64,000 nucleotides of DNA. Source: Alphaproteobacteria bacterium (lineage in GTDB: Bacteria; Pseudomonadota; Alphaproteobacteria; Micavibrionales; UBA2020). The stretch spans positions 5,730 to 69,729 of the forward strand of contig JAIOQI010000056.1 in NCBI GenBank assembly GCA_021413445.1, in the 5' to 3' direction. Positions 6,378 through 9,385 of this stretch are shown here, piece by piece. The notes beneath the pieces were generated by a model. The model had not been told where the DNA came from. It was given only the letters and a program-made list of their open reading frames with translations, and ran no database searches. Position numbers and translations under genes: made by a program. Each line of letters starts with the position of its first letter. Within the stretch, counting starts at the first letter, position 1.

Positions 6378-8945
6378 ATGCGTTGGACGCGGTTTTATAC
6401 ACAGGCGGGGCGTGACATCTTCAACGGTGTGCGGTTTCGCAGCGTGTCGAGCGAACAGCAGCTGGAATATATCGTGCCCCAGCGCTGGAACCAGGCCGCC
6501 GTCGATGTCCTGCTGGAGAAGGTTTTTTACCCGGAAGCCCTGCCATCCCTGACGAAAAAGGTGGCAGAGGCGGGGGTTCCCGCCTGGCTCTGGCGGAGCG
6601 AGGTCGATGACACGGGGCTCGACAGCATTTCGGCGGAATGGCGCTACCGCCACGAGCAGGACATCCGCGAGGTCTTGCACCGCATGGCCGGGGCGCTCAC
6701 CTACCGGGCGTGGAAAAACGGCCTGTTTCCCGCTGAGGCCGACGCCGAAGTTTTCTATGACGAGCTGCGCTATATTTTTCTCCACCAAATCGCCGCGCCG
6801 GAGCTGGAACAGTGGGGATTGCTGGGGCTGGACTGGGCTTACGGCCTGACGGATGCCGCCGCTTTCATTCCCCGCCATCGCATTGTTCCCTTTGAAACCG
6901 ACAAGCCCCATGCCCTGAAGCGCATGAAAATCCTGGGCGATACGCTGGCGCTGGAGAACACCACCCTCTCTGCGTCGCCGAAAACCGGCGTGACCCTGCC
7001 GATTGAAAATATCGACAGCCCCGCCTTCATCGCCTGGAAAAGGGACTGCGACCTCCGGCAGGTCGCGGAAAGCCTCGGCCAGCGCATGCTGCAAACAGCA
7101 GCTTACCATGTGATGGATGCCTGCGACCGCGACAGCTTTTTCGGCTTCGACCCGGCGCACAACCCGAGGCTTTCCCGGGCCATGGACGAGGCGCGGCAGT
7201 CGGGGCTGTCCGAGGCGGCGATCCGCATGGCCATCAGTTACGCGGAGCAGGGCTATGAGGAAATTTCTTTCCCCGTTCCCGAAGAAGACCAGGCTGCTGG
7301 CCAATGCCTCAAGACCGTCCTGTCCGTGCCCGATGACTTTGTCGAGGCGGCGCTGACGGGGCACAGCATTTTGCTGTATGAAGCGGGCGAGCCCCAGCGC
7401 CATTATCCGGCGCAGAAGTTATGGGACGGGCTGGCGGAAGCCGTCTGGTCGTCGGGCGAGCCGGCGGTTTCCTTCCGCAGCAGCATCGAGTCCGCCAATG
7501 TTACCGGGCAGCCTTTATTCTGCGATACCACCGGCGGGTTTGTTTTCGTGGCCGGCAGTGAAGCGCCTTCCGCGACGGTCAATCTGCTCGCTTTCGCCCG
7601 TTTTGAGGGAGAGAGCGTCATCGACACGGACGCCCTACAGCATGTCGCGCGTATCCTAACTGTGGCGCTGGATGCCGTCTCCGGCGGCGGGGAATACCGC
7701 CCGCTCATGCTCGGCCTGACGAATATCGCAGCCGTGCTGATGGGCAGGGGGATCGCCTATGACAGCGATGCCGGACGCACGGCGGCGGCGCTGGCGGCGG
7801 CGCTGCTATCGGGCTGCGCTTATCAAACCTCGGCGGAAATAGCGGCGGAGAAGGGGGCCTTCCCGGCTTATGCCCCCCGCGCCAAAATATTCTTGCAGAA
7901 CATCAAGGACAAGCTGGCGGCGCTGGCCGGTACGGCTTTTTTGCAAAAGGGGATGACGCGCCGACCGGCGCAGATCCGGACGACGCTCTGTCCTGATAGC
8001 GCGCTGGTCGATGCGGTGAAACAGGCATGGGAGAGCGCCTATCGCACCGGCAAGGAGACCGGCTTCCGCCACGCGCACCTGACGGGGATCGACACGGACC
8101 CGGCGGTGCAGGCGCTCCTGAACGGGCAGACGCAGGACATCATGCCTTCATCCGCGCTGGTGCGCTTTGAGGGGTATTTTTCCGATACGCTCGAAGGGGC
8201 GCAGCTCTACGGCAAGAAACTGAACCCAATGGCGCCCCGCGCGCTTTCCCGTCTCGGCTATACGGTCGCCGAGCGCGAAGACATCCATTTTTACGCGGTC
8301 GGGCACGGCACGCTGCTGGATGCGCCCCATATCAACCACAGGAGCCTGCGTGAAAAAGGCTTTCATCAGGCGGCGCTGGATGCGGTGGAATCCGCTCTCG
8401 CCGCGGCGCTGCATATCCGTTACGCCTTCAACAAGTGGACGCTGGGCGAGGAGTTCTGCCGCCGGGTCCTCGGTTTTTCGGCGGAAGAGCTGGACAGCGG
8501 CACCTTCGACATGCTCGCGGCCTTAGGCTTTTCGGAAGACCATATCGAGGCGGCGAATATTTACTGCTGCGGCACGATGACGTTTGAGGGCGCGCCGCAC
8601 CTGAAGCCGGAGCATCTCGCCGTTTTCGACTGCGTGGCCCCTGCCGCCGCCTTCGGCGTGCGCCGCGTTTCCGCGCAAGCGCAGGTCAAGATGCAGGCGG
8701 TGCTGGAAACCTTCCTCTCCGGCGCCGTTGCCCATACTGTCCTGCTCAGCCATCCCGCCACGATTGAAGATGTGCAAAAACTGCTGCTGACGGGCTGGGA
8801 ACTCGGCGTGAAGTGCTTAAGGCTCTACCGCGATAGCTGTTCCCTGCTGCATCCGCTGGTGCTGCCGGCAATCAAAACTGAAACAGTGAAAGTGAAAGAA
8901 GAAGAGGAGTCCCTGCCATGTCCCAAGCAATCCATAACCGCCTGA
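6378..8945 (+). CDS. class II (B12-type) ribonucleotide reductase-like protein, divergent and truncated, active-site motifs not conserved
   Basis: 855 aa. Colinear with remembered NrdJ blocks: FYDELRYIFLHQIAAPE, AVGHGTLLDAPHINHRSLREKGF, EAANIYCCGTMTFEGAPHLKPEHLAVFDC, RLYRDS. The NPCSE, ACNL and SKTIN positions are substituted, and the usual C-terminal ~300+ aa are absent. Confidence 0.75.
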   Translation: MRWTRFYTQAGRDIFNGVRFRSVSSEQQLEYIVPQRWNQAAVDVLLEKVFYPEALPSLTKKVAEAGVPAWLWRSEVDDTGLDSISAEWRYRHEQDIREVLHRMAGALTYRAWKNGLFPAEADAEVFYDELRYIFLHQIAAPELEQWGLLGLDWAYGLTDAAAFIPRHRIVPFETDKPHALKRMKILGDTLALENTTLSASPKTGVTLPIENIDSPAFIAWKRDCDLRQVAESLGQRMLQTAAYHVMDACDRDSFFGFDPAHNPRLSRAMDEARQSGLSEAAIRMAISYAEQGYEEISFPVPEEDQAAGQCLKTVLSVPDDFVEAALTGHSILLYEAGEPQRHYPAQKLWDGLAEAVWSSGEPAVSFRSSIESANVTGQPLFCDTTGGFVFVAGSEAPSATVNLLAFARFEGESVIDTDALQHVARILTVALDAVSGGGEYRPLMLGLTNIAAVLMGRGIAYDSDAGRTAAALAAALLSGCAYQTSAEIAAEKGAFPAYAPRAKIFLQNIKDKLAALAGTAFLQKGMTRRPAQIRTTLCPDSALVDAVKQAWESAYRTGKETGFRHAHLTGIDTDPAVQALLNGQTQDIMPSSALVRFEGYFSDTLEGAQLYGKKLNPMAPRALSRLGYTVAEREDIHFYAVGHGTLLDAPHINHRSLREKGFHQAALDAVESALAAALHIRYAFNKWTLGEEFCRRVLGFSAEELDSGTFDMLAALGFSEDHIEAANIYCCGTMTFEGAPHLKPEHLAVFDCVAPAAAFGVRRVSAQAQVKMQAVLETFLSGAVAHTVLLSHPATIEDVQKLLLTGWELGVKCLRLYRDSCSLLHPLVLPAIKTETVKVKEEEESLPCPKQSITA

Positions 8946-9385
8946 AAGAACTGGGCGTCGTGCTGCCGCAGCCAGCGGCGCCGGCGGCGAACTATGTCCC
9001 TTTCGTGCTGTCGGGTCCGATGCTCTATATCTCCGGCCAATTGCCGATCGCGGACGGCACGATGATGAAGGGCTGCCTCGGCAGGGGGGCGACGATAGAA
9101 CAGGGGCAGGAAGCGGCCAAACTGTGCGCGGTGAATATCCTGGCCCATGCCAATGTAGCGCTGGGCGGCAACCTGGCGCGGATCGTGCGCTGCGTGAAGC
9201 TGGGCGGCTTTGCGGCCTCGACGGCGGATTTTTTCGATCATCCCAAGGTGATGAACGGCGCTTCCGATTTCATGGTGGCGGTGCTGGGCGATGCCGGGCG
9301 GCATGCGCGGTTCGCGGTCGGCGTGACGGCCCTGCCCTTCGGCGCGATGGTCGAAGTGGATGCCGTGTTTGAAGTGGCGGCATAA
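8918..9385 (+). CDS. RidA/YjgF-family protein
   Basis: 155 aa with a YjgF/RidA-like pattern (LYISGQLP..., C-terminal VEVDAVFEV). gaggag RBS. Overlaps the upstream ORF by 28 nt. Confidence 0.8.
   Translation: MSQAIHNRLKELGVVLPQPAAPAANYVPFVLSGPMLYISGQLPIADGTMMKGCLGRGATIEQGQEAAKLCAVNILAHANVALGGNLARIVRCVKLGGFAASTADFFDHPKVMNGASDFMVAVLGDAGRHARFAVGVTALPFGAMVEVDAVFEVAA

Follow-up and report, generated by a model that had tools for sequence, protein, structure and literature searches.

The locus and its genes

The stretch of DNA analysed here, 64,000 nucleotides from an alphaproteobacterium of the Micavibrionales (GenBank assembly GCA_021413445.1, contig JAIOQI010000056.1; below "the window"), carries at 6378..8945 of the forward strand (+) a coding sequence of 855 amino acids (aa) for a catalytically dead orthologue of NrdJd, a B12-dependent class II ribonucleotide reductase (RNR). 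Its stop codon is overlapped by exactly 28 nt by a gene of the Rid/YjgF family (8918..9385, +; 155 aa), as an earlier reading made from the letters of the window alone (the sequence-only reading) had stated in calling this neighbour ridA-like. An nrdAB pair for a class I RNR lies upstream.

The 855-aa protein matches the Pfam families PF08471 and PF02867. Its best solved relative is the NrdJ of Rhodobacter sphaeroides (7b9p, E 1e-130), with residues 42-169 of which the N-terminal class II RNR domain pairs (aa 31-137; 6468..6788, +; PF08471, E 3e-21); the RNR barrel spans aa 340-653 according to Pfam. All peptides that the sequence-only reading had quoted for colinearity with B12-dependent RNR are present, and the alignment to 7b9p bears this colinearity out. 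None of the NCBIfam equivalog cut-offs for NrdJ is reached: the protein scores 560.8 bits with NF005736 (cut-off 1737) and 126 bits with TIGR02504 (cut-off 400). PADLOC returned no defence-system match for either the dead gene or the Rid gene, and PHROGs gave nothing beyond generic RNR matches. The genome had been described as GC-rich; this holds in moderation only, with 62.5% GC and a GC content at third codon positions (GC3) of 0.77. A frame of 855 codons would stay open by chance with a probability of about 1e-11 at the base composition of the gene.

Loss of the catalytic and specificity elements

We aligned 75 members of the dead family with 25 true NrdJd, using 7b9p as the reference structure. 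The five catalytic residues, i.e. C199 in beta-A, N476, C478 and E480 in the finger loop and C489 in beta-F, are each present in 25/25 true NrdJd and in 0/75 members of the dead family, so that an alignment with NrdJ sequences, as had been proposed along with the sequence-only reading, finds all five of them missing. In the window protein the former finger loop and beta-F (7524..7589, +) read DTTGGF for NPCSEY and EAPSATVNLL for TACNLASxNL. Both replacements had been recognised before. The register of the first, given as QPLFCDTTGG, was off by a few residues (the true pairing is DTTGGF), while that of the second, APSATVNLLAF for ACNLASLNL, agrees with the pairing of TACNLAS with EAPSATV found here.

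The segment HACFIQ...GSGTG...KSGGTTRRAA, which lies between residues 159 and 208, is about 65 aa shorter in the 855-aa protein and has no Cys. The alignment leaves a shortened remnant of beta-A, alpha-A, loop 1, alpha-B and loop 2 (aa 160-210; 6855..7007, +), and the earlier description of the segment with the first redox Cys and the GSGTG and RRAA loops as shortened and unrecognisable was correct. Loop 2 (KSGGTTRRAA) is deleted in 70-74/75 family members, and GSGTG (loop 1) is gone from the window protein. The former phosphate-binding loop (8088..8108, +) reads IDTDPAV for IAPTGTI, with DTDPA opposite APTGT. Further downstream, the alignment places the former SKTIN strand (SGAVAHTVL) and the YRD strand (LYRDSCSLLHP) at 8718..8855 (+), with AHTVL opposite the SKTIN of live NrdJd, just as had been read from the sequence. 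The family consensus is unlike true NrdJd at almost every position of APTGT and SKTIN.

The alignment stops at the YRD strand. The C-terminal TSCPD/IscU-like and zinc-finger part, an electron shuttle of about 350 aa, is absent, in accordance with the earlier estimate that some 300 or more aa are missing, and Pfam detects no PF12637 in the 855-aa protein or its family. A split NrdJa/NrdJb arrangement was considered and rejected because the window and the flanks contain no TSCPD gene and no gene for a separate cysteine-rich C-terminal domain (CRD); a second nrdJ was likewise not found in the 64-kb window or the flanks examined. Since the thiyl Cys, the Asn and Glu, the redox Cys, the phosphate loop, the specificity elements and the C-terminal shuttle are all lost, the dead protein cannot reduce nucleotides by the known RNR mechanism.

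Family, predicted fold and selection

About 77 full-length relatives (757-937 aa, 40-87% identity) came up in a protein search, from metagenome-assembled genomes of Micavibrio-like Alphaproteobacteria. After a gap, identity drops to 31-37% for true NrdJd, which are about 1200 aa long. The 75 intact full-length members share 33-90% identity, and in a distance tree they form one group apart from 42 true NrdJd. Family members are named "hypothetical protein" at NCBI. JGI pipelines label them "ribonucleoside-diphosphate reductase alpha chain", and metabolic reconstructions that follow this label would wrongly assign a B12-dependent RNR, and with it a need for B12, to Micavibrio-like predators.

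AlphaFold2, run with the family alignment, models the 855-aa protein with a predicted local distance difference test score (pLDDT) of 88.4 and a predicted template modelling score (pTM) of 0.87; the model is uncertain only at a loop (aa 600-609) and in the acidic tail (aa 824-855). A Foldseek search with the model matches 7b9p at E 7e-57 and template modelling (TM) scores of 0.81/0.77, and the NrdJ of Thermotoga at TM scores of about 0.47/0.63. The RNR alpha/beta-barrel fold is predicted to be retained together with its finger loop.

Ratios of nonsynonymous to synonymous substitution (dN/dS) were calculated between the window and the related loci L081, L082 and L084 (78-90% protein identity; dS 0.28-0.9). 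The ratio for the dead gene is 0.13-0.19 in every close pair, compared with 0.10-0.17 for folC, 0.09-0.23 for the Rid gene and 0.02-0.07 for nrdA and nrdB together (nrdA 0.04-0.07, nrdB 0.02-0.06). Purifying selection on the dead gene is about as strong as on folC. Within the protein, the regional values range from 0.11 to 0.56 and all lie below 1. The lowest (0.107) falls on an insert at aa 640-755, and the highest (0.56) on the shortened segment (aa 160-210), which is under the weakest constraint in the protein. A single orthologue among the loci examined is split, that of L005 (7991-10365; JACQAA010000144.1), which lies in two frames near 9832-9841 by frameshift or assembly error.

These observations support the view that the gene is a conserved, selected and catalytically dead RNR derivative rather than a decaying pseudogene. 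The sequence-only reading had likewise preferred a pseudoenzyme or neofunctionalised protein to a pseudogene in decay, and two of the checks proposed with it speak for this preference: orthologues are intact and their dN/dS values give no sign of neutral evolution, and the comparison of an AlphaFold model with an NrdJ structure yields a confidently predicted, NrdJ-like fold.

Origin of the locus and the Rid neighbour

In species-representative genomes, a scan located the dead family at 23 loci and true nrdJ at 57. The dead-family loci share a common order, with a divergently oriented DUF2155-MlaD-NDUFA12 block upstream and a Rid-like gene, pyrF, accD and folC downstream. The upstream block occurs in the same orientation in 19/19 dead-family loci outside the clade of the window (those with an upstream flank), and an NDUFA12/DUF2155 block is likewise found upstream, in the same orientation, in about 40 of the 57 true-nrdJ loci. 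The dead gene thus occupies the locus that true nrdJ holds in other Alphaproteobacteria. By position it is the orthologue of the ancestral nrdJ of this class and not a duplicate; the earlier designation as a paralogue has to be abandoned.

The Rid protein scores above the cut-offs of PF14588 (76.6 vs 35 bits) and PF01042 (55.8 vs 27.3 bits) and remains below that of the archetypal RidA (TIGR00004, 30.5 vs 106 bits). Its nearest solved structures are 3d01 (E 1.5e-48) and then the Rid family protein PA0814. The sequence-only reading had proposed that the NrdJ-like gene is coupled to this neighbour, and a check of the pairing among relatives does not uphold the proposal. A Rid-like gene also follows true nrdJ in eight loci, in L037 directly adjacent to it. 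In the dead family the Rid gene lies between 42 nt and 4.5 kb away, often with intervening genes, and it is missing at the dead-family loci L001 and L012; the overlap of 28 nt is confined to the window and L081-L084. A tight adjacency specific to the dead form is therefore not conserved. Because true nrdJ loci share the pairing and the adjacency is loose in the dead family, the Rid neighbour represents inherited synteny and is no evidence of a new functional couple; it is probably a bystander from the ancestral locus.

Some further features of the loci may be recorded. Between the Rid gene and accD the window has three divergent tandem paralogues on the minus strand (9406-10095, 10168-10875 and 10954-11676), which are 28-36% identical over their aligned parts and show weak LeoBC matches; pyrF, which follows right after the Rid gene at most other loci, does not do so in the window. 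An open reading frame (ORF) at 59549-61114 encodes the core of a class II aminoacyl-tRNA synthetase (PF00152) together with ankyrin repeats at the C-terminus; genes with ankyrin repeats are also frequent at L085 and L090, two related loci. The records of L003 and L006 are labelled "Bdellovibrionales" or "Patescibacteria group". Their synteny is alphaproteobacterial and NCBI taxonomy places Micavibrio in Bdellovibrionota; these labels reflect taxonomic history or binning and not biology.

Class I reductase and regulation

Apart from NrdAB, no intact RNR was found in the window or in those parts of the related genomes that were examined. The nrdA gene (1131..2933, +) encodes a class I alpha subunit of 600 aa without ATP-cone (NF006577, 1033 vs 620 bits), whose translation shows NLCSEI, the redox Cys, YY and a C-terminal CLSC; nrdB (3568..4551, +) encodes the beta subunit (NF007186, 570 vs 237 bits) with its E..H...Y motif. 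Both exceed their equivalog cut-offs, and nrdB ends 1.8 kb upstream of the dead gene, in good agreement with the canonical pair noted previously at about 2 kb. The adjacency of nrdAB to the dead gene and the nrdA-nrdB-phoH block are specific to the clade of the window. In two other genomes they share a contig but lie far apart: on a 2.2-Mb contig nrdAB lies at about 790 kb and the dead gene at about 125 kb (about 650 kb apart), and on JBKBWZ010000002.1 they lie at about 360 kb and 197 kb, respectively (about 160 kb apart).

A gene for a PhoH-like ATPase follows nrdAB directly (5466-6218). This order is frequent in phages; here it is limited to the window and its close relatives. A phage origin of nrdA-nrdB-phoH was considered and rejected, as the window is ordinary bacterial chromosome and the NrdA homologues among the 120 best database matches are 79-96% identical to that of the window. 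Among these 120 matches are copies from two contigs on which the dead gene is present as well. Between nrdA and nrdB, an ORF of 131 aa (3152-3547) without family match has 32% GC compared with about 60% in its neighbours, and the same gap in L084 (2449-3318) holds a Bro-N domain gene. With these two genes, the spacer looks like a place where foreign or mobile genes insert.

The dead gene and nrdAB appear to be controlled separately. A strong intrinsic terminator, read from the sequence as GCCGCCCCGG-ACACAAAG-CCGGGGCGGC-TTTTTT, follows phoH (6244..6282, +) and sets the dead gene apart from nrdAB and phoH upstream. Next comes a promoter-like motif (6289..6317, +), in which TTGAAC and CAGAGT are spaced by 17 nt and a TGn precedes the second hexamer. 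The pattern TTGAnn-N17-(TGn)CAnAnT is conserved in 21/24 dead-family loci, in most of them 86-91 nt before the start, and is found in 0/31 upstream regions of true nrdJ (background 0.006 per 300 bp). Conversely, a simple weighted consensus scan detects NrdR-like boxes upstream of 22/31 true nrdJ genes (background 0.02 per 310 bp) and of 0/22 dead genes. Two such NrdR-box-like sites, ACCCAACATGTGGTAT and TAACTATCTCTAGTGT, precede nrdA in the window (997-1012 and 1029-1044, +), 32 bp apart; the same pair occurs in L084 and a similar one, 31 bp apart, in L090. We interpret this as an indication that the regulation of the dead gene is uncoupled from RNR control and probably relies on a sigma-70-like promoter motif of its own.

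A search of the whole window with Rfam found one tRNA only; neither nrdAB nor the dead gene is preceded by a cobalamin riboswitch. The tRNA gene (38940-39011) adjoins a gene for a coupling protein of the TraG/TraD type (40799-43279) and may mark an integrated conjugative element.

The conserved insert

Both NrdJd-specific inserts are present in the 855-aa protein. The conservation of its parts was expressed as retention, i.e. the share of columns invariant in live NrdJd that the dead family has kept. The second insert (aa 639-752; 8292..8633, +), which runs YAVGHGTL...FNKWTLG...YCCGTMTFEGAPHL...VFDC, is conserved more strongly than any other part of the protein and keeps 78-92% of the live-invariant residues, compared with 0-61% in every other region. 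For instance, the N-terminal domain (aa 31-137) keeps 37-50%, and the first insert (aa ~214-310) is poorly retained with 24-34%. This first, helical insert contains a hairpin resembling the N-terminal domain of YebC/TACO1 (aa 256-292; 7143..7253, +; PF20772 below cut-off) with the pattern GFDPxxNPRLxxAxxxARxxGxxxxxIxxAI. Matches to PF20772 below cut-off are found in 27/47 dead-family members (best E 8e-7) and are precomputed for live NrdJd too. Ahead of the hairpin lies a family-specific motif, MDACDRD (7113-7133, +).

The pattern is not confined to the family of the window. A profile search for NrdJd-like proteins over 1.84 billion cluster representatives returned, beyond the dead family, about 75 further representatives of 50%-identity clusters that lack the finger-loop Cys, many of which retain the C-terminal TSCPD domain. 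Seven seemingly dead matches proved to be live NrdJ with an intein insertion and were discounted. The insert was also scored in 59 NrdJd-like proteins which do not belong to the family and have no NxCxE finger motif; its retention there is 84%, as opposed to 24-69% in other regions. Two of the proteins without finger motif, P0411 and P0421, are likewise encoded at an NDUFA12/DUF2155 locus (L092, 10001-13015, and L093, 10001-13003). Several of the proteins without finger-loop Cys are nearer to live NrdJd (50-59% identity) than to the family of the window (32-40%), and these closer relationships to live enzymes point to a repeated, probably independent inactivation of NrdJd-like proteins.

The proteins P0241-P0377, P0411 and P0421 fall into at least three types, namely short forms with "GGF...APSAT", forms of about 950 aa with "HGxxIN / AxGDGxF", and long forms that keep TSCPD. 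Several of them resemble live enzymes more than they resemble one another. One protein of 1197 aa with dead finger loop and intact C-terminal domain, P0251, was considered as an evolutionary intermediate and rejected; it is a separate case, since it occurs once only, on a contig of 5 kb, and is closest to live NrdJ (41% identity).

Function of the dead protein

All catalytic residues are lost and the gene is nevertheless kept by selection, which implies that it must have another job. We consider it the best explanation, with a probability of roughly 0.6, that the protein is a non-catalytic pseudoenzyme, i.e. a folded, dead descendant of NrdJd that is kept as a binding or scaffold protein by means of the insert at aa 639-752. 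A binding or scaffold role is the most likely one because conservation of the insert comes close to that in live enzymes, in this family as well as in the other proteins without finger motif. The lineage would have switched its deoxyribonucleotide synthesis to NrdAB and kept NrdJ for a second function that is free of catalysis. This function would most likely reside in the insert, which would hold a partner, either a second copy of the dead protein or another protein.

More tentatively, the large subunit of NrdJd may in general have a hidden, catalysis-independent function in the insert, which several alphaproteobacterial lineages have kept; we hold this extension to be possible and somewhat more doubtful than not. 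The function would be important enough for dead enzymes of 800-1200 aa to have been kept, apparently independently, at the ancestral nrdJ locus, in the present lineage beside NrdAB. It would make the Micavibrio-like family a natural "separation-of-function" mutant of a well-studied enzyme.

Several points weigh against the binding or scaffold protein. The deletion of alpha-A removes half of the canonical dimer interface. The "HUG domain" of NrdJd reportedly stabilises the active dimer, and the conserved insert may or may not be this domain; if HUG corresponds to aa ~214-310, the conserved feature is not dimer stabilisation. The genomes of the dead-family loci were seen in part only, and a live NrdJ may be encoded elsewhere in them. 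The scans for NrdR boxes and promoters were simple and self-made, and the promoter pattern was set after the sequences had been viewed. Finally, the conserved and family-specific polar residues D247, D250, R251, E294, H329, R528, R529 and H679 could mark a new active site.

This last point leads to the rival that fares best, though we regard it as unlikely: a neofunctionalised enzyme, whose remodelled barrel would hold a new active site for a different, non-radical reaction. The eight residues just named, and likewise T327, Q578, Q769, Q773 and E777, are near-invariant in the family and differ from live NrdJd. New histidines stand at the former active-site strands (RHAH, AHT, LLHP), the finger tip is Gly-Gly in 61-65/75 members, and the predicted model keeps fold and barrel. 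However, Pfam, NCBIfam, PADLOC and PHROGs reveal no recognisable catalytic motif of another family in the dead protein, retention is lowest in the former active-site regions, which are also under less constraint than the insert, and other NrdJd-like proteins without finger motif have different residues at the same positions.

We find it harder still to see the protein as a ligand sensor or carrier, which would continue to bind adenosylcobalamin or a nucleotide and act as sensor, store or chaperone of B12. The YRD strand by the cofactor site is partly kept (R in 75/75 and Y in 63/75 members) and the overall fold is intact in the predicted model, but both nucleotide sites are destroyed, with APTGT changed, loop 1 lost or degenerate and loop 2 deleted, and the window shows no cobalamin riboswitch and no B12 genes.

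Slightly less credible again is a role beside a live NrdJ whose gene lies elsewhere in the genome, as its partner or regulator in a dead/live heterodimer like that of yeast Rnr4 with Rnr2. The conserved NrdJd-specific insert could clasp a live subunit, and "a few Alphaproteobacteria" possess two NrdJd, of which one alone has the C-terminal domain (Loderer et al., PMC5704485). In the present case, however, the dead gene sits at the ancestral nrdJ locus itself, no second nrdJ was found in the 64-kb window or any flank, none of the true NrdJ among the listed protein matches comes from a contig equal in length to one with the dead gene, NrdAB is present in the lineage, and helix alpha-A of the canonical interface is gone. 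Plain decay with a frame open by chance is the only rival clearly excluded and has next to no probability: it would fit the loss of all catalytic residues and of the C-terminal third and the split orthologue in L005, but not the dN/dS values of 0.13-0.19 in every close pair, 75 intact orthologues down to 33% identity, the minute probability of an open frame (~1e-11), the confident AlphaFold2 model and the conserved promoter-like motif.

Comparison with known systems

The non-catalytic pseudoenzyme proposed here shares with the NrdJd of R. sphaeroides (7B9P/7B9Q; NF005736) the fold, the PF08471 domain, both inserts and the chromosomal locus of alphaproteobacterial nrdJ. It differs in the lack of the thiyl Cys, Asn and Glu, of the redox Cys pair, of APTGT and SKTIN, of the TSCPD/zinc-finger C-terminus and of the NrdR-like boxes. 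With yeast it would share the principle: Rnr4, an inactive beta' subunit of RNR, is a selected pseudoenzyme that acts by protein binding. Rnr4 is a small-subunit paralogue paired with the active Rnr2, whereas the dead NrdJd is a large-subunit orthologue for which no active class II partner was detected. The curated NCBIfam family NF005401, "ribonucleotide reductase-like protein" (PRK06948), is likewise RNR-like without being named an RNR, but the window protein is not a member, as its match is partial, covers 80 residues and reaches 52 bits against a cut-off of 906.

The CRD-less second copies of NrdJd (PMC5704485) also lack the cysteine-rich C-terminal domain. They are described as second enzymes beside a full NrdJd, with no catalytic loss stated, in contrast to the window gene as the sole copy at the ancestral locus; Micavibrio is not mentioned in the supplements of PMC5704485. 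Among class II sequences, 3175 of 3347 have NPCxE, and the remainder is left undiscussed (Burnim et al., PMC9669993). In the searchable literature we found no description of a dead class II RNR in bacteria or of a dead NrdJ kept at the ancestral locus, nor anything relevant on the RNR of Micavibrio.

RNR is among the best-studied essential enzymes. The loss of catalysis combined with the conservation of the insert would define a specific and testable module, perhaps with an unrecognised function in live NrdJd too. Dead RNR large subunits with other roles are known from herpesviruses, while a bacterial dead NrdJ at its ancestral locus appears to be undescribed. The R1 homologues of betaherpesviruses (M45 of MCMV, UL45 of HCMV) are reported to be inactive RNR large subunits with a protein-binding role outside RNR (PMC5469499). 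The dead NrdJd is, like M45 and UL45, a full-length and inactive homologue of the RNR large subunit that has been kept, with a binding role that is in our case deduced only. The viral proteins are derivatives of class I alpha that target RIP1/RIP3 signalling of the host, in part via added N-terminal motifs; the dead NrdJd, unlike them, is bacterial, derives from class II and has no added domain.

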